Positions 2,034 through 42,442 of a stretch of 64,000 bases of DNA are shown piece by piece (positions within the stretch are counted from its first letter, which is position 1; each line of letters opens with the position of its first letter). The stretch comes from an uncultured delta proteobacterium. Lineage in GTDB: Bacteria; Desulfobacterota; RBG-13-43-22. The position numbers were made by a program, and so were the translations under genes. The DNA lies in assembly GCA_963843145.1 (NCBI GenBank), contig CAWJJC010000028.1, forward strand, positions 64,001 to 128,000, in the 5' to 3' direction. The notes under the pieces were generated by a model. The model had not been told where the DNA came from. It searched no databases and saw only the letters and a program-made list of their open reading frames with translations.

Positions 2034-4817
2034 TCAGGTGGTTTCCCTCAGCGCCTCGACCCGCACGGCGCATATTTTGTATTCTGGAATTTTGGACACC
2101 GGATCCAGGGCGGAGTTGGTCAACTCGTTAACCGAGGCCTCCGGAAAATGAAAATTTCCATAGACCATCCCTGGGGGGACGCGGTCGGTGATCCAGGCAT
2201 CACTCTCGATCATTCCTCTTCGGGAAGTGACCCGAATCCGTTTATTTCCATTCAGACCCAGCTTCTTGGCATCGGCCGGATTGAGTTCAACCAACGGCCG
2301 GGGATAGATTTCCAACAGGCCCTTGGCCCTTCGGGACATCTGTCCGCCGTGCCAATGGTAGAGTACCCTTCCGGTGCTCAGGAGATAGGGATATTCACGG
2401 CTCGGCATTTCCGCGGCCGGGAGATTTTCGTTGACCGTAAATTTCCCTACTCCGCGGGCAAATTTTCCCACATGCAAGACCGGGGTCCCGGGGTCGGTGC
2501 TGTTCTTCACCGGCCACTGAAAGGTTTCCCCCCGCTCCAGGCGCTCGTGGGTCACCCCGGCATAACTGGGGGAAAGAGCGGCGATCTCTTCCATAATTTC
2601 CGAGGTGCGCTGATATTCCCATCCGCCGTAGGTCCCGTCACTCACCCGTCGCTCTCCTTTGGAGAGAAGGCGCCGGGCGAGCTCGGAGATGATGCGCCAA
2701 TCCTCGCGAGCCTCTCCCGGGGAGTCAATGGCCTTCCGGACCATTTGGATCCGTCGTTCGGTATTTGTAAAGGTGCCTGTTTTTTCAGCAAAACTTGTTC
2801 CAGGCAGGAGGATGTCGGCATAGGGTTCGGTTTCGGAGGAAAAGAGTTCCTGGAGTATGACCAGGGAACATTCCTTGAGGCAATGACGCACATGATTCGT
2901 ATCCGCATCGCTCATTATCGGATCTTCGCCTAATATGTAGAGGGCTTTGATCTTCCCCTCGGGAATGCCGGGCATCATCTCGGTAACCGTCATCCCCACC
3001 TTGGGTGACAAAGGGACCCCCCAGGCGGCTTCAAATTTCCGCTGGACCTCGGGGTCGGTCACGGCCTGGTAGGCCGGATAGACATTGGGCAGACCGCCCA
3101 TGTCGCAGGCCCCCTGGACATTGTTCTGTCCCCGCAAGGGGTTGACGCCGCCTCCGGGGATACCCATGTTGCCCAAGACCATTTGAAGATTGGCCAGCGT
3201 CTGGACGTTGCTGACCCCGGTGATATGCTGGGTGATACCCATGGCCCAGAGTACGGCCATGGGTCGGTTTTTGGCCATCAGTTCGGCCGCCTCCTGGAGT
3301 TGTGTCAGGGGGACTCCTGTAATCTTTGACACTATTTCCGGAGTATAGGTCAGGACCACTTTCTTGAATTCCTCAAAACCTTCCGTCCGCTCGGCGATAA
3401 AGGATTTATCTTCCCAGCCCTGAGAGAGGATGATATGCATCAGTCCATTAACCAGGGCGATGTCGGTGCCCGGATGATGACGCAGGTGCAAAGTCGCGAA
3501 ATCCGCCAGGGGGATCCGCCGGGGATCGGCCAGGATCAGCACGGCTCCCCGTTGTCTGACGGCCTGGCGGACCCGGAACCCGATCACCGGGTGCTGTTCG
3601 GTGGTATTGGAGCCGATCACCAAAAAGGCTCGGGCCTGTTCGGCAATATCTTCAATCGAATTGGACATGGCGCCCGAACCGTAGGAAATGGCCAGACCGG
3701 CCACGGTGCTGCTGTGTCAGAGGCGGGCGCAATGGTCTATATTGTTCGTCCCTAAAACCTGCCGGGCGAATTTATTCATCAGATAATTTTCTTCATTCAA
3801 ACACTTGGCCGAAGTCAGGACCCCGATCCGGTCACCGCCATCTTCGTCTCGAATCGTCCGTAACCGATTGGCAGTCAAGTCCAGGGCCGTGCCCCAATCC
3901 ACTTCCACCCAGGGATCGCCGAATCGTTTGGCGGCCCGCTCTCCTTCTAACAAATACTTGCGCACCCGGGGCTTGGTCAGGCGATCGGGATGGCTGACAT
4001 AATCATAGCCAAAGCGGCCCTTGACGCACATCCAACCGCGGTTGGCCGGAGATCCCCAGGAGGAATCCACTCGGACGATGGTATTATCTTTCACCTTCAG
4101 ATCAAGCTGGCAACCGACGCCGCAGTAGGAGCAGGTGGTCTTGACGCTCCGGTATTCCCAGTTCCGGCCTCGGCCGAGAGACATCTTGGCCGTCAGGGCG
4201 CCGGTGGGACAGATGGCCAGACAACTGCCGCAAAACTCACAAGGGCTCTGGGCCATCCCGGCCTCGGTGTCCTCGCCAAAAGCGATGACGGCGTTAAAAC
4301 CCCTTTCGATGATTTTCACCGCCTCGACGCCGTTTATATATTTGCAGGCCCGGACGCAGCGACGGCATAAAATACACTTATTGCGGTCCACTTGAATAAA
4401 GGGATTGGAGGTGTCGATGGGGAACTGTTGCCGTTCTCCCGTAAAACGGGTGCCTTTGACCTCATATTCATAGGCCAGGTCCTGAAGGAGGCAGTTCCCG
4501 GTGGCTTCACAGGTCAGGCAGTCCAGCGGGTGATTGGAAAGCAACAGTTCCAGGACGGCTTTCCGGGCCTCGATCACTTTGGGCGAATGGGTTTGGAGGA
4601 CCAACCCTTCCTCAACCGGAAAGTTGCAGGCCGTCTCCAGGGAACCCTGCGGCTCTCTTTCCACCACGCAAATTCGACAGGCGCCGTCCGGGGGGAGGGC
4701 CGGATGGTGGCACAGAACGGGAATCGTGAACCCGGCCTCCGTGGCCGCCTCCCAGACAGTTTTTCCAGCCAGGGTTTCAACTTGTTGACCGTTAATCGTT
4801 AGGTGAACTTTTTCCAT
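2034..4817 (-). CDS. fdhF: Selenocysteine-containing formate dehydrogenase alpha subunit (Mo/W-bisPGD, N-terminal 2Fe-2S and 4Fe-4S domains)
   Basis: ORFs 3717..4904 and 2034..3704 are in frame across TGA 3717-3719, giving IDHCARL-U-HSSTVAGL, the FDH active-site motif. N-terminal Fe-S Cys motifs are present. The likely start is MEKVHL at 4817, after an AGAAAGGAG RBS. Confidence 0.93.
3688..3719 (-). promoter_or_regulatory. SECIS element of the FDH gene
   Basis: UGA, then 12 nt, then GUGGCC-GGUCU-GGCCAU. The loop resembles that of the E. coli fdhF SECIS. Confidence 0.85.
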
Positions 4818-4994
4818 GGGGGTCAGAGACTCCTTTCTTACAATCGGCCCTGTGCCTTTTTCCCGAGGTATGACGGATGGGAACCTATAACTCTCTCGAA
4901 TCACTTAAGAAAATATTGAATACCGGGTCAGACTGAAAATCAGGTCGATTATAGTTTAAGGGGTAGAGGCGGTCAAGAAGAAAAAGTGTATCCA

Positions 4995-28356: not shown

Positions 28357-28556
28357 AAAGTGCTATCCTCCTCGGGAAGTTAAAATCCTATCGAATCAGT
28401 TTCGGTTATTTATTTCAGATAGGCAACCCTAAAAACATCCTAATTTGACCCCCCCATCTGTTTCTTGTATTATGGACCAAAATTTTTCAACCGATCAATG
28501 AGACCCTGAGGTTAATCAGAAGGTTTGCCTCCTCACTCATCAGCCAAAGGAATAGC

Positions 28557-28862
28557 GTGGGTATCGGCATCATCACCAGCCGGGGCTGGGCGGAAATGGG
28601 CATGGACTTCATTTTTCATGAACTACAAGTCAACCGGTTGGCCGAGAAGGGGCTCGATCCGCTGAAAATAGCCCACCGGATGTTGAAGAATTTTACCCGA
28701 GGGCTGTATATTGAGACCGGTTTGGATGATGACCGGCGTTTATGGCTCCGGGCCCAGGATATTTCCAGGGAGTTTAACTTGCGTTTAGAACGTACGAGCG
28801 GTAGTCTCAATCTCTTGAAACAAACCATTGAAAAGTCGCTTGCGGGAGTTAACCGGTTATAG
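28557..28862 (+). pseudogene. Probable C-terminal fragment of a DUF1638-like protein
   Basis: SRGW...RGLYIETG...A...FNL...GSL resembles the DUF1638 C-terminal half. No N-terminal half or clear RBS is visible. Confidence 0.4.
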
Positions 28863-28912
28863 AAAAGGTAAAAATCGGATGAACCAGACACCCGAGCAAG
28901 AAGCCAGGGAAG

Positions 28913-28967
28913 TAATTTCTTTAAGGTAAACCCCCGGCCTAGCCGGGGGTTTACCTTAAAGAAATTA
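28913..28967. repeat. Perfect 26-bp inverted repeat with a 3-nt loop
   Basis: TAATTTCTTTAAGGTAAACCCCCGGC-CTA-GCCGGGGGTTTACCTTAAAGAAATTA. Confidence 0.95.
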
Positions 28968-29011
28968 TATTAAGAGTGCAGTAATTCACAAATTACAGGA
29001 CATATTTCTTA

Positions 29012-29067
29012 TTGATTATACTTTTTCAGGCAATTATGGTATATTGAATACGCAATAATTCAAATAT
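29012..29067 (+). promoter_or_regulatory. Putative abiE promoter and inverted-repeat operator
   Basis: TTGATT-17nt-TATGGT (29012-29040), followed by TTGAAT-N8-ATTCAA (29044-29063). AbiEi proteins are known to autorepress through inverted repeats. Confidence 0.4.
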
Positions 29068-29096
29068 TATATGAACTGCTACTCTCAGAATATACC

Positions 29097-29906
29097 ATGA
29101 AATCAATGGCTGGTTTAGGAAAAAAGGAAAGAGAACGGCTTTCGGCCATCCTCCGGGAAACGAAAGGGACAATTTCGGTCGAGGAAACCGGGAAAATTCT
29201 TGGGATAAATCAAATAATGGCGGCCAAGATGCTGTCCCGTTGGGTCGGGCAGGGATGGCTGTCCCGGGTCCGCCGTGGGTTATATGTTCCGGTCCCTCTG
29301 GAATCTCGAACCACGGACGTCCCTTTGGAAGATCCCTGGATCGTGGCTTCCCGGTTATTCAACCCTTGCTATATCGGCGGGTGGAGTGCAGCCGAGTACT
29401 GGGACCTGACGGAACAAATCTTTCGAACGATTATTGTCATCACCCTTCAACGTCCCAGAGACCGAAAACCAAAAATCAAAGATATTGAGTTCTGGGTCCG
29501 TTCAACGAAATCCGAAGGTTTCTTTGGTTTTAAACCTGTATGGAGAGGAGAGGTTAAGGTAAACGTCTCCGACCCAACCCGGACTATACTGGACTTGTTA
29601 GCCGATCCCGGTCTAGGAGGGGGGGGCCGTTCCGTAGAGGATATGCTGATCAATTATCTTAAATCCGATAAAAAGGATTTGAATCTCCTGCTGGAATATG
29701 CGGAGCGGTTAGGTATTGGAGCGGTATATAAACGTTTGGGATTTTTGCTGGAACGATATGCCCCCGAGGAACAAGAGGTCATTCGGAAATGCCGTGAAAG
29801 GCTTTCAGCCGGTAATGCCAAACTCGATTCGAACCTTCCATCCAACCGATTGATAACAAAATGGCGCTTATGGGTTCCCGGGCGAAACGGAGGCCAAGAC
29901 CCTTGA
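29097..29906 (+). CDS. Type IV toxin-antitoxin antitoxin / transcriptional regulator, AbiEi family
   Basis: N-terminal wHTH (GWLSRVRRGLY), YIGGWSAAEYWDLTEQI, VSDPTRTILD, KRLGFLLE. Its stop overlaps the start of an AbiEii gene. Confidence 0.88.
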   Translation: MKSMAGLGKKERERLSAILRETKGTISVEETGKILGINQIMAAKMLSRWVGQGWLSRVRRGLYVPVPLESRTTDVPLEDPWIVASRLFNPCYIGGWSAAEYWDLTEQIFRTIIVITLQRPRDRKPKIKDIEFWVRSTKSEGFFGFKPVWRGEVKVNVSDPTRTILDLLADPGLGGGGRSVEDMLINYLKSDKKDLNLLLEYAERLGIGAVYKRLGFLLERYAPEEQEVIRKCRERLSAGNAKLDSNLPSNRLITKWRLWVPGRNGGQDP

Positions 29907-31328
29907 TCAGTAGGCAGGAGGTACTGGAATTTGCCCATGAGCTAAGACTCGCTCCGAATATTGTGGAAAAAGATTATGTCCTGGGGTGGGTCTTGGCGGG
30001 AATTTATCAATACCCCGCTTTTGGGAAAAGCTGGGTCTTTAAGGGAGGGACTTGTCTTAAAAAGTGTTTTTTCGAAACGTACCGTTTCTCGGAGGACCTG
30101 GATTTCACATTAACCGACCCTGGCCATATTGACGAAGAATTTCTCAGGAACTCATTCGGTGAAATCGTGAATTGTATGACCAGGCCGGTATGTAATCCCA
30201 ATAGACGCGCTTCGTTTCGACGTTTATCAAAACCCGAGAGGGAACCAGTCGGCCCAGGGGAGGATCAGTTATAGAGGGCCTATGAGAAAAGGCGGGGATC
30301 TTCCTCGGATTAAATTGGATCTGACCAATGACGAGATTTTGGTATTGGATCCTGTCCAAAGGGAAATTCACCATCCCTACTCGGATAAGGCGAAAGATGG
30401 CTTCTGGGCTTATTGCTATTCATTTGAGGAGGTTTTTGCCGAGAAGATAAGAGCCCTAGCGGAAAGAGAAAGGCCCCGTGACCTATACGACGTGATCCAG
30501 ATCTTTCGTCATGAAGAATTAAGGCCGGACAGGATCGTCGTTTTCGAAACACTTGAGAAAAAATGTTCCTTCAAAGGAATTGCGGTTCCAACCATTGAAT
30601 CCTTAGGTAAAGAACCCGAGCGTTCCGAACTGGTGGCCGAGTGGGAAAACATGCTCGGCCACCAGTTACCGGCCTTACCACCTTTAGAGCAATTCTGGGA
30701 AGATCTCAAAGTCTTTTTTAAATGGCTGCTCGGGATTGCCGAATTAATCGTCAAGCCGAGTTTCCCAATTCCAGTCGCAAGGATTGATCCAGGATGGCGC
30801 CCTCCGGATATGTTTCAGGTCTGGCATGGTTCTACATCAATGGAGACCATTCGCTTTGCCGCTTCCAACCGGCTGTGCATTGACTTGCAATATAATGGCA
30901 GCCGAAGGCTAATTGAGCCTTATTCCCTGCGTCGTTCTCGGGAAGGGAATATCCTGCTATATGCGGTTAAACACAATACAGGAGAAGACCGTGCCTACCG
31001 AGTTGACCGGATTCAAGCCGCCGAAGTATCCAAGGTTCCTTTTGATCCTCGGTATCTTGTAGAACTTACATCTTCAGGCTCCCTGCACATCCCCCATTTA
31101 TCCCGACCCTCAAACGGACATCAAAGGCCCCGTACTAACCCGCAGGCAGGTCATTATAGATCTAGTAGATCCCTTTCTAGTTTCGGGGCAAAATTTATTT
31201 TCGAATGCCCCCTGTGCAATAAAAGATTTACGCATAATTCCAACCATTCATCCTTAAATAAACATAAGGATAAAAACGGCTATCCCTGTCCGGGAAGAAC
31301 AGGGCTTTATATAGACACAAAATATTAG
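29903..31328 (+). pseudogene. AbiEii nucleotidyltransferase fused to a WYL domain and a C-terminal Zn finger; frameshifted at about 30170-30195 (real lesion or sequencing error)
   Basis: VEKDYVL, FKGGT.LKK, RFSEDLDF, AEKIRAL...RPRDLYD; WYL-like Y...RRLIEPY...RAYRVDRI; CPLC...H...C. Confidence 0.8.
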
Positions 31329-31336
31329 AGGGATTC

Positions 31337-32818
31337 GTGAACTCAATCGATATTGTTCAAAAACTCTGGAATTACTGCAACGTCCTGCGCGACGACGGCA
31401 TGAGCTACGGCGACTACGTCGAGCAGCTTACCTATCTGCTATTTCTGAAAATGGCCAATGAAAGGGCCCGACCGCCCTATAACCAGCCGAGTATTGTTCC
31501 GGCAAAATATAGCTGGGAAAGTCTCCTGAAAAAGGATGGGGACGATCTGTTCGATCACTACCGACACCTCCTGGAGAACCTGGGCAATGAAAAAGGTCTG
31601 CTGGGGCTGATCTTCAATAAATCCCAGAATAAGTTCCAGGACCCGGCCAAGTTGCGCCGCTTGATCGTGGACCTGATCAACAAGGAAAATTGGTCCATGA
31701 TGAGCGCCGATGTCAAGGGGGATGCTTATGAGGGATTGCTGGAAAAGAACGCCCAGGACACGAAATCCGGCGCCGGGCAGTATTTTACGCCTCGCCCTTT
31801 GATCCGAGGCTATCATGGATGTAATGGTCGCCGAAACCCGGGGATACCATCTGCGACCCGGCCTGCGGCACAGGTGGTTTCCTGCTATTGGCCCACGATT
31901 ATATCGTGAAGCACTACCCGAATATGACCAAGGGCGAAAAACGGAAACTAAAGGAAAATACCTTTAAGAGTTGGGAACTGGTCCAGAGCACGGTGCGTTT
32001 ATGCGCCATGAACCTCATGCTCCATGGGATTGGAGGGCAGGAAGATCTACCGATCATCCCGGGAGATTCTTTGGCCTCGGACCCGGGGGATCGATTTGAA
32101 CTGGTTATGACCAATCCTCCTTTTGGGAAAAAGAGCAGCACCGCGATTGTGGCCGATGACGGAAAGGTGGTTAAAGAAAAAGAGATCATCGAGCGGGATG
32201 ATTTCTGGGCCACAACCACAAACAAGCAATTGAATTTCCTCCAGCACGTTAAAACGCTGCTTAAACCCAACGGCCGGGCGTCCATTGTCCTTCCCGACAA
32301 TGTCTTATTTGAAGGCGGGGCAGGGGAGACGGTTCGCCGAAAGCTGATGCATGAGTGTGACGTCCACACCCTTCTTCGCCTTCCGACCGGATTATTCTAT
32401 GCCCAGGGGGTCAAGGCCAATGTACTTTTTTTTGACCGCAAACCGGCTTCCGAAAATCCCTGGACCAAAAAGGTTTGGATTTACGATTTGAGGACCAATA
32501 AACACTTTACTTTAAAAACCAATCCCCTGAACCGGGAAGATCTGGACGAATTCGTCGGGTGCTATAACCCCTCCAACCGTCACAACCGCCAACCTACCTG
32601 GTCTGAAAAAAACCCTGATGGCCGTTGGCGGGCCTTTGACTATGAAGAGTTGATCAACCGGGATAAGACCAGCCTGGACATTTCGGCTGCGGGACGACAG
32701 CCTGGAAGATTCGGACAATCTTCCGGACCCGAATATTCTTGCGCTGGAGATTGTGGAGGATTTAGAGGCAGCTTTGGCACAATTTAAAGAGATAACCGAT
32801 GATTTGGGGGCCGCTTAA
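31337..32818 (+). pseudogene. hsdM: Type I restriction-modification methyltransferase HsdM; frameshifted near 31808-31830 and 32683
   Basis: KLWNYCNVLRDDG, AGQYFTPR, DPACGTGGFL (shifted frame), TNPPFG, IYDLRTN, and the C-terminus ...EDLEAALAQF in another frame ending at TAA 32816-32818. Confidence 0.9.
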
Positions 32819-32945
32819 TCTGTTGATGTTGGCTCCGGAGAAAACTACGTACGTTACGTAGCTTTAGTAAAGAACCATCTGTTTCTGTACTTGATATGAA
32901 TCGCGAAATTGCCAAATTGGGTTCGATTATACAGGGCTCACCGTC

Positions 32946-41194: not shown

Positions 41195-41855
41195 AAGGCC
41201 AAGTTCCTTTCGAAAACTAATTTAAAAAATACTAACTGAACGCTCGGCGATGTCAAGAGAATAGACCTGTTTAATACGAAAATAGAACTCGGCACCACTC
41301 GGGCATTCATCAATAATTAATAATGAACAATTGATTATTAATTATTAATGTCAAAAACTTAGGCTTATGTCTGCCCCTTATTTTCATGCTTCGGGGTGCC
41401 CGCCCCGGGCATGGGGGTTAGTATGAAAATAGAATTGATCACCGCTTTTTAGGCGTTTTGTTTTTGCCGTCATCCCGGACTCGATCCGGGATCCAGGTGA
41501 CCCAGGACCTTCACTGCCCTGGATTCCGGCTTTCGCCGGAATGACGGTTATAGGGCACATACCAAAGGTCGTCACCCCGGCGAAAGCCGGGGTCCGGACA
41601 TCAAGCATGGATGAAGCAGAAGGTTGTTCCAATAATGAGTTATTCGTGGGGGCGGCGACCCCGTCACGCCTAAGGCGTGACCGGATTTGGCCACCGTCGC
41701 CGTCGCCTTACCTTGGATGTGCAGGAAACCTTATCCTTCACCCAGCCGGCCGGCGGGGTCGCCGGCCCTACGAAAAACGAAAACTTGGGACATTTTCATG
41801 CTTCGGGGTATCCGTCCAGGGCATGGGGGAGGTATTAAGCAAAATGAGAGACCAA

Positions 41856-42442
41856 ATGAATCGTGTTCTTTTCTTAGACCGGGACGGGGTGATTTGCCGG
41901 GATCGGGCGGATTACGTCAAAAGCTGGGAGGAATTCCGGTTTATTCCCGGGGTCAAGGGGGCCTTGCGCGCAACTTGCGGGAGGCCGGAATACCCGTGCT
42001 GATCATCACCAACCAATCGGTGATCAACCGGGGGATCCTCACCCGGGAGGCCTTGGATAGCCTGCACGGCAAGATGATCCGGGAAGTCGCCCGGGCCGGG
42101 GGAGAAATAGCCGGGATCTATTATTGCCCGCACCGTCCGGATGAAGGCTGCGAGTGCCGCAAGCCCGGGACCGCCCTGTTGAAACAGGCCGCCCGGGAGC
42201 GCCGTTTGAATTTAAAAAAATGCGTCTTCGTGGGCGATACCCTGAAGGACCTGGAGGCGGGAAAAGGGGTGGGCTGCCGAACCATATTGGTTCAAACGGG
42301 GCAAGGCCGCGAAACATTGAAGAAGATATTCCAAACGGACCGTCCCGGCAGCAACTTCTTTATTGCCGGGGATTTGTTCCGAAGCGTTGATCTGATCATT
42401 CGATTGATGAATTCTGCCTTCACATACACACCAGGAGAATGA
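41856..42442 (+). pseudogene. gmhB: D-glycero-D-manno-heptose 1,7-bisphosphate phosphatase; frameshift near 41965 (likely sequencing error)
   Basis: FLDRDGVI in one frame; ITNQS, YCPH...CECRKP and FVGD in another. Confidence 0.85.

Follow-up and report, generated by a model that had tools for sequence, protein, structure and literature searches.

A 64,000-nucleotide stretch of the genome of an uncultured delta proteobacterium (Desulfobacterota, lineage RBG-13-43-22; assembly GCA_963843145.1, contig CAWJJC010000028.1, positions 64,001 to 128,000), hereafter the window, carries an abiEi antitoxin gene followed by a toxin gene in which an AbiEii-type nucleotidyltransferase is joined to a WYL domain and a Cys/His tail. 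This locus is quite likely a decayed member of a known and widespread branch of the AbiE/MenAT systems, and a mechanism can be proposed for the intact copies of that branch. The fusion of AbiEii, WYL and zinc parts is real, conserved and widespread; the copy in the window is probably dead. The architecture has been in print since 2014, and so has the hypothesis that the WYL domain acts as a sensor (Makarova et al., 2014, PMC4012209), and the window locus by itself adds little, being one more, broken, member of that architecture. The family to which it belongs is large and conserved.

The fused toxin and its family

The gene pair and the parts of the toxin gene are laid out as follows.

29097..29906, + strand: abiEi antitoxin/autorepressor gene, open, 269 amino acids
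29903..30169, + strand: toxin gene, frame piece 1 (residues 1-89 of the intact homologue P0003, 79% identity; AbiEii profile positions 3-54), with the N-terminal helices, motif I FKGGT (30038-30052) and motif II RFSEDLD (30083-30103)
30170..30194, + strand: break zone, three reading frames within 25 nucleotides, where homologues have 30 (P0003 residues 90-99)
30195..31328, + strand: toxin gene, frame piece 2 (P0003 residues 100-476 align with 30195-31325, 79% identity), with the rest of the nucleotidyltransferase including motifs III and IV (30441-30491; AbiEii profile positions 96-232)
about 30819-31058, + strand: WYL domain in piece 2, with a disordered linker next to it
about 31191-31325, + strand: C2HC zinc tail in piece 2, with invariant Cys and His residues

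The toxin gene starts at TTG 29903, overlapping the abiEi stop codon TGA at 29904-29906, and residue 1 of P0003 aligns exactly at base 29903. The translational overlap noticed in a preliminary description of the window is thus borne out, as the TTG lies within the abiEi stop region. The two toxin pieces score 52.7 and 67.1 bits with the AbiEii family of Pfam (PF08843; cut-off 22.5), and the motifs reported earlier (FKGGT, RFSEDLDF and EK...RPRDLYD) are all present. According to the available text of Dy et al. (2014, PMC3985639), DUF1814 is defined by motifs I-IV, each of which is needed for toxicity, motif III being a lysine in a hydrophobic setting and motif IV having the form +DxxD. In the window toxin, motifs I and II fit the pattern hG[G/S]-x15-DhD (FKGG, 15 residues, then DLD, plus R61), and motif III (AEKIRALAER) and motif IV (RPRDLYD) are both found within 30441-30491. 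The segment that had been called WYL-like is matched in piece 2 by the Pfam WYL family (PF13280; 28.4 bits, cut-off 21.8, profile positions 3-70 of 70), and no helix-turn-helix (HTH) or WCX family of Pfam matches the toxin pieces. The tail CPLC-x15-H-x7-C is likewise present as described; its pattern, C-x2-C-x15-H-x7-C, is C2HC, not C2H2, and the tail is, as read from its sequence, a conserved C2HC metal site.

Is this arrangement peculiar to the window? A word-indexed search with the large toxin piece as query yielded 8000 scored candidates, 6544 of them with E<=0.001, and the 120 best were analysed. The possibility, allowed for in the preliminary description, that homologues lack the fusion is not what was found, as 106 of these 120 carry both PF08843 and PF13280. 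Their length is 449-488 amino acids in 115 cases, the query is covered to 98-100% in all but one, and identity to the query is 56-61%, with the exception of five that are more closely related (76-97%). When P0003 was compared exhaustively with 1.84 billion cluster representatives, 4725 matched at E<=1e-3; the number fell to 2102 at E<=1e-10 and to 518 at E<=1e-30. Three length classes can be seen among the 150 best: proteins of about 450-490 amino acids that match to the end, proteins of about 390-400 that match to about residue 392 and proteins of about 275-285 that match to residue 277. At the genome level, with one genome per species, a relative is encoded in 579 of 601 pattern-matched stretches, and the phyla and classes represented include Nitrospirota, Desulfobacterota, Alpha-, Beta- and Gammaproteobacteria, Acidobacteriota, Actinomycetes and others. 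From these stretches 80 loci were kept, to which all locus counts given here refer. The search for intact homologues that had been suggested was answered by 57 of them, in which an uninterrupted three-domain gene ends with the Cys/His tail. Fifteen loci encode a toxin of 380-454 amino acids without that tail, in five the toxin stops before 380 amino acids, in two it runs off the contig, and in one it is long but has no tail pattern.

Conservation extends over all three parts. The catalytic positions and those that may bind a ligand do not vary among the 115 aligned full-length proteins: G48, G49, R61, S63, D65, K183, R194 and D198 are invariant, as are, toward the C-terminus, Y367, R368, D370 and the four metal ligands C437, C440, H456 and C464. 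D67 is retained by 90% or more of the sequences. The R-x-[FY]-R-x-D-R-I strand of WYL domains is also kept in the toxin.

Structural predictions point in the same direction. The fold of the N-terminal part was tested on P0003, which is about 78-79% identical to the window toxin; its AlphaFold2 model has a mean pLDDT (predicted local distance difference test) of 80.3 and a pTM (predicted template-modelling score) of 0.79, with a disordered stretch at residues 397-428. In Foldseek searches its first 300 residues match TglT/MenT3 (6j7o; 1.8e-6, target-normalised TM-score 0.61) and also MenT4 and Helicobacter pylori JHP933, and its C-terminal part matches PafBC, DriD, CapW and BrxR. The last 181 residues of the window toxin itself were modelled with 101 aligned sequences, giving pLDDT values of 90-96 over the WYL domain and 79-97 over the tail. 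The preliminary description had considered that the C-terminal region might not adopt a WYL/Sm fold; an all-against-representatives structural search with this model placed the domain closest to PafBC (Z 12.6, root mean square deviation 1.8 Å over 79 residues), with Z 12.1 to CapW bound to single-stranded DNA (ssDNA) and Z 11.6 to ssDNA-bound DriD. The first unrelated folds follow at Z 8.5, and Hfq and Lsm proteins at Z 5-7.5, the Hfq-like ones at about 7. The C-terminal region is thus predicted to be a WYL/Sm-like barrel with a preceding helix. At the level of sequence, the WYL segment has no significant match in the PDB (best E 0.3), and the relationship is visible by fold comparison only.

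The fusion has a clear precedent. Makarova, Anantharaman, Grishin, Koonin and Aravind (2014, PMC4012209) reported the combination of WYL with an "AbiGII-like nucleotidyltransferase (DUF1814)", proposed WYL as a ligand sensor regulating the Abi nucleotidyltransferase, and listed in DataSheet6 a class "AbiGII-like-nucleotidyltransferase+WYL+C2H2" of five proteins with 486, 476, 407, 393 and 333 amino acids, the 407- and 393-residue forms being labelled DUF1814+WYL. The present family has the same three domains in the same order, the same length classes and the same sensor proposal. That paper gives no context, structure or experiment for the class; what is added here is the pairing with AbiEi at all 80 loci, a recurrent position before hsdM, fold models, a predicted interface and one broken copy. 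Strict AbiEi pairing, recurrent linkage of abiE with hsdM, an invariant Ser63 and an interface predicted to spare the WYL and zinc parts are by-products of the analysis.

Comparison with characterised systems shows what is shared and what is not. The AbiE systems of Streptococcus agalactiae and Lactococcus lactis have, like the present one, bicistronic and overlapping abiEi-abiEii genes, DUF1814 motifs I-IV and a winged-helix AbiEi. No WYL or zinc-finger part is described for classical AbiEii (the term WYL has no occurrence in the available text of the 2026 preprint of Arrowsmith et al.), and the fused toxin is about 190 residues longer. Among known structures, MenT3/TglT, MenT4 and MenT1 of Mycobacterium tuberculosis come closest to the N-terminal 300 residues (Foldseek 1.8e-6 to 2.4e-3, target-normalised TM-score about 0.6); they belong to the same DUF1814 superfamily but are single-domain proteins with only 11-18% identity to the fused toxin. 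To our knowledge, MenA1 is not a COG5340 antitoxin. The WYL barrel superposes on those of DriD, PafBC, CapW and BrxR with Z 10.5-12.6 and a root mean square deviation of 1.6-3.7 Å over 75-85 residues. These four, however, are HTH-WYL-WCX transcription factors, whereas the WYL domain of the fused toxin sits on an enzyme that has no HTH or WCX match in Pfam; true WYL-WCX regulators near two of the homologous loci (L004 and L005) do give such matches.

Partnership with AbiEi and the proposed switch

An AbiEi homologue is encoded directly upstream of the toxin gene in all 80 loci, and in the 40 junctions inspected the abiEi stop and the toxin start overlap or lie a few bases apart. AbiEi of the window, whose 269 residues compare with a usual 267-272 in homologues, has an N-terminal winged-helix part matched by PF13338 (AbiEi_4; 34 bits, cut-off 25, residues 13-65); in its C-terminal part, residues 82-219 align with positions 8-141 of the 142 in PF09407 (AbiEi_1) at 16.8 bits, below the cut-off of 22.2. 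Complex formation was predicted for a homologous pair, the toxin of locus L006 and its own AbiEi, with our own alignments. The pair scored 0.67, against 0.01 for the best of three controls; this mark is reached by 116 of 157 solved complexes and by two of 215 mismatched pairs, a calibration that is rough here because own alignments were used. The runs share at least 82% of contacts, and the pLDDT of the partner is at least 85. Confident contacts on the toxin are confined to residues 4-20, 61-65, 122, 131-139, 192-194 and 239-258, none lying beyond 258; in the predicted complex they make up the active-site face including Ser63 and motif IV. The model thus supports binding of AbiEi to the toxin and, because the contacts fall on the nucleotidyltransferase only, the WYL and zinc parts would be free with the antitoxin bound, if the prediction is right.

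How might the antitoxin hold such a toxin in check? In the available text of a 2026 preprint on S. agalactiae AbiE (Arrowsmith et al., 2026), AbiEi binds AbiEii and induces auto-phosphorylation of T65, this phosphorylation abolishes nucleotidyl transfer to tRNA, and AbiE is reclassified as type VII. T65 lies two residues before the first Asp of motif II, and the same place in the fused family is occupied by the invariant Ser63 (115 of 115 proteins). The preliminary description had supposed that the toxin is switched on allosterically instead of through antitoxin loss; given AbiEi-induced auto-phosphorylation, this wording needs updating.

An outline of the process proposed for intact members is as follows. 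The toxin, of about 476 residues, would comprise the DUF1814/AbiEii nucleotidyltransferase, the WYL Sm-like barrel, a disordered and variable linker and a C2HC tail that would bind zinc. It would be translationally coupled to abiEi, which encodes a COG5340 protein with a winged-helix N-terminal part and a putative C-terminal neutralising domain. By homology with AbiEii and MenT toxins, the nucleotidyltransferase would add nucleotides to the 3′ ends of tRNA and so halt translation. AbiEi would dock on the active-site face and hold the toxin off, probably via auto-phosphorylation of Ser63, the counterpart of S. agalactiae T65. The WYL and zinc parts, predicted to stand outside this interface, would most likely bind single-stranded nucleic acid, which would serve as a trigger or be gripped as the substrate. 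A nucleic acid is the most likely ligand because the solved WYL domains closest in fold use bound ssDNA as an allosteric signal; ssDNA binding has been described for the WYL domains of DriD, CapW and PafBC, as far as the available text of the reports goes.

That the WYL/zinc part acts as a trigger has, in our estimate, somewhat less than an even chance, although switching of a toxin by a sensor carried on the effector itself is plausible. A more specific form of this idea, which we hold to be unlikely, would make the WYL-C2HC part a sensor in cis: on meeting single-stranded nucleic acid it would override the Ser63 phosphorylation imposed by AbiEi, so that a ligand bound to the toxin, and not the loss of the antitoxin, would fire the system, and the recurrent position between hsdS and hsdM would couple the trigger to type I restriction. 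If this were true, the trigger might sense DNA ends or ssDNA arising from restriction or from phage replication. With the work on ssDNA-binding WYL domains and on phosphorylation control of AbiE, the fused family is a ready test case for how Abi toxins are switched on.

The alternative is that the WYL and zinc parts form a substrate-recognition module, which holds tRNA or another RNA or sets the target range and is not an infection sensor. We consider this rather doubtful, though several observations agree with it: the WYL fold is Sm/Hfq-like, with Hfq and Lsm proteins among its structural matches at Z 5-7.5; tRNA is what both MenT toxins and AbiEii act on, and they differ in the targets they choose, according to the available text of the reports on them; and the tail has a C2H2-like knuckle, a common motif in nucleic-acid binders. 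Close relatives exist without the tail (about 390-407 amino acids) or without both parts (about 275-285), which suggests an accessory rather than an essential role. Against it stand the nearest solved WYL domains, which bind ssDNA as a signal, and the characterised DUF1814 toxins, which, in the available descriptions, modify tRNA without any extra domain. The long, disordered and variable linker suits a tethered sensor or anchor and a substrate grip equally.

Several points weigh against the mechanism proposed for intact members as a whole. The three-domain check suggested in the preliminary description confirmed a MenT/TglT-like N-terminal fold (on P0003) and a WYL barrel, but left the tail below the Pfam zinc-finger cut-offs: the best model, Zn-C2H2_12, gives 20.5 bits against 23.2 and zf-C2H2 17.6 against 25.2, none of the zinc-finger models scoring above its cut-off. 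A phmmer match of the tail to the fingers of ZBTB20 has an E-value of 5.3e-6, summed over repeats, and in both the whole-protein and the C-terminal models the tail is made of strands only. The score of the predicted complex may partly stem from likeness to solved structures of the MenAT type. The S. agalactiae system did not protect E. coli from any of 32 coliphages, as stated in the available text of the 2026 preprint, so a defence role is not given for AbiE systems. A full-text literature search, in which subscription journals are thinly covered, returned no experimental study of an AbiEii-WYL fusion, only the 2014 catalogue.

Probable decay of the local copy

The state of the window copy has to be judged together with that of the DNA around it.

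28357..32934, no strand: islet of 4,578 nucleotides, between a DsrE-like gene and a membrane-protein gene
31337..32812, + strand: hsdM (type I methylase) pseudogene, in pieces 31352-31807, 31828-32682 and 32681-32809

In a genome of the same genus (G002), the alignment with the window breaks off after 28356 and resumes at 32935; G002 has 173 unrelated nucleotides in between, from which it follows that the window carries an islet of 4,578 nucleotides. Within it the order is abiEi-toxin-hsdM, eight nucleotides separating the toxin stop from the hsdM start. The adjacent HsdM reported earlier does have type I methylase domains (HsdM_N and N6_Mtase in Pfam) and is 72-84% identical to the intact HsdM of locus L013, but its gene is broken into three frame pieces. 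The islet and the 57 open reading frames (ORFs) of the window that were scanned yielded neither hsdS nor hsdR, the rest of the genome not having been searched.

The toxin gene is broken as well. As assembled, it has no single open frame. The preliminary description had recovered the protein by frame repair; the gene is indeed out of frame, but not by one event, because 25 nucleotides separate the two pieces where ten residues need 30, and a third frame lies between them, which implies at least two events over 30170-30194. The toxin and hsdM are thus frameshifted in the assembly, and abiEi alone looks functional. Because toxin and hsdM are broken and hsdS and hsdR were not found in the islet, the islet appears to be a remnant, not an active defence locus. 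Of the "defence islet" of the preliminary description, the islet stands, being absent from G002, and the defence does not; nor can the repaired gene be taken as a working system, since what is assembled is a pseudogene beside a broken hsdM.

That the frame breaks are real decay is the more probable reading. Most genes elsewhere in the window have full-length NCBIfam matches, for example CTP synthase, DnaB, RpoN, Uup, MnmA and MtaB, so that the breaks cluster in the islet. The genome contains no further copy of the toxin, and among 30 relatives only one (G017) has a full-length fused homologue, with 58% identity.

A less probable reading, which we would put at well under an even chance, is that the frameshifts are errors of assembly or consensus and that the toxin, and perhaps hsdM, is intact and part of a working AbiE-WYL module. 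All breaks are small indels in short runs, and the source genome is metagenome-style, with 32 contigs and 6.9% contamination. Single-base differences occur in related low-depth contigs exactly at 29885 and at 32680/32684 in hsdM. A gmhB-like heptose-bisphosphate phosphatase gene at 41541-42442 (+ strand), outside the islet, lies likewise in two frames, one with the FLDRDG part and the other with the TNQ... part. Set against this, most of the other window genes scanned are full-length, yet no fewer than three breaks lie in the 3.7 kb that run from abiEi to hsdM. Both of the closest database relatives are likewise shortened or frameshifted, but at different positions: P0001 (97% identical) has a shifted C-terminal end, and P0002 (85% identical, on an 83.9-kb contig) has the same internal Met start and a shifted end. 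The toxin stops early at five of the 80 genome loci too, one of which (L011) adjoins a fragmentary hsdM, and the failure to find hsdS or hsdR in the islet fits a remnant.

Three considerations count against real decay. First, this reading rests on the assembly alone, the Logan contigs of four runs giving no cover over 30072-30205 (the best run contained 0.26 of the sampled words). Second, the frameshift of the gmhB-like gene outside the islet makes assembly indel errors possible. Third, low-depth contigs 98-99% identical to the window have two extra T, at 32680 and 32684, that keep the frame of hsdM open; close relatives with less damaged copies probably exist. For abiEi, a metagenome contig with 99% identity has one base fewer at 29885 than the window, which would move the abiEi stop a few codons later and keep the overlap with the toxin start, so that the last residues of AbiEi may be altered in the window by one extra base at 29885.

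Programmed recoding, by which the two frame changes would yield one protein, has the joining of three frames within 25 nucleotides as its sole support and was rejected as having next to no probability, since the gene is in a single frame in 57 of 80 loci and in 115 of the 120 best homologues, the window is 5 nucleotides short at the break and offers no codon for the conserved Trp91 in any joined frame, and hsdM is broken in like manner.

Neighbourhood and other features

Three further elements lie upstream of abiEi in the islet.

28557..28862, + strand: DUF1638 gene fragment (PF07796, residues 9-90 matching profile positions 86-160 of 161)
28913..28967, no strand: perfect 26-nucleotide palindrome with a 3-nucleotide loop, just inside the islet and followed by an AT-rich stretch
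29036-29045 and 29089-29098, no strand: perfect 10-nucleotide inverted repeat, the second arm covering the abiEi start codon

The first is, to judge by its profile match, a 5′-truncated DUF1638 remnant at the left edge of the islet; with the DsrE-like gene reaching to 28356, the space in front of it is too short for the half that is lacking. The palindrome looks like a bidirectional terminator hairpin. AbiEi binds inverted repeats in its own promoter, according to the available text of Dy et al. (2014, PMC3985639), and the repeat spanning 29036..29098 is a candidate AbiEi operator. The AT-rich promoter region of the preliminary description is unproven: a consensus scan for sigma-70-like promoters found none on the + strand upstream of abiEi; the one site it gave, against 1.2 expected by chance, is on the - strand.

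Linkage to type I restriction-modification (R-M) genes recurs in the family. As raw counts, parts of such systems lie within 8 kb at 12 of the 80 loci; of the 45 loci that have 3 kb or more of sequence on each side, 11 show them. An hsdM gene follows the toxin on the same strand at a distance of 6-523 nucleotides in 10 of the 80 loci, and at L002, L006 and L028 the pair stands between upstream hsdR-hsdS and downstream hsdM. The neighbour survey covered 385 ORFs, of which 150, from loci L001-L034, were scanned with Pfam and the other 235 by tblastn for type I R-M subunits only. Among the 150, toxins of the HipA, BrnT, PIN, Fic, HEPN and Zeta types were encountered, as were a type III R-M set, a reverse transcriptase, WYL-WCX regulators, integrases and transposases; the labels defence and mobile for neighbour genes are our own.

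Some of these neighbourhoods have features of their own. In two Nitrospirota loci (L004:4212-6923 and L005:4528-6921), a divergent HTH-WYL-WCX regulator gene adjoins the abiE-WYL pair, which gives two different WYL proteins per neighbourhood; also present are an LRAT-like gene and, depending on the locus, a patatin or a PycTM gene. At L006:5407-6999, a DUF6119 protein (1e-87) is encoded between hsdS and the abiE pair, inside the type I R-M operon. A second decayed copy is found at L011:6741-8876, in a metagenome-assembled genome of Actinomycetes, where the toxin frame is cut short after 362 codons and the HsdM_N part is all of hsdM that follows in an ORF.

Elsewhere in the window, a formate-dehydrogenase-alpha-like gene with a NuoG-like N-terminal part (2034-4904, - strand) is split into two ORFs by an in-frame TGA at 3717-3719, in the context ...HCARL*HSSTV.... 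The ORFs match positions 1-128 and 135-672 of the formate dehydrogenase alpha profile, and this TGA is most likely a selenocysteine codon and not a break.

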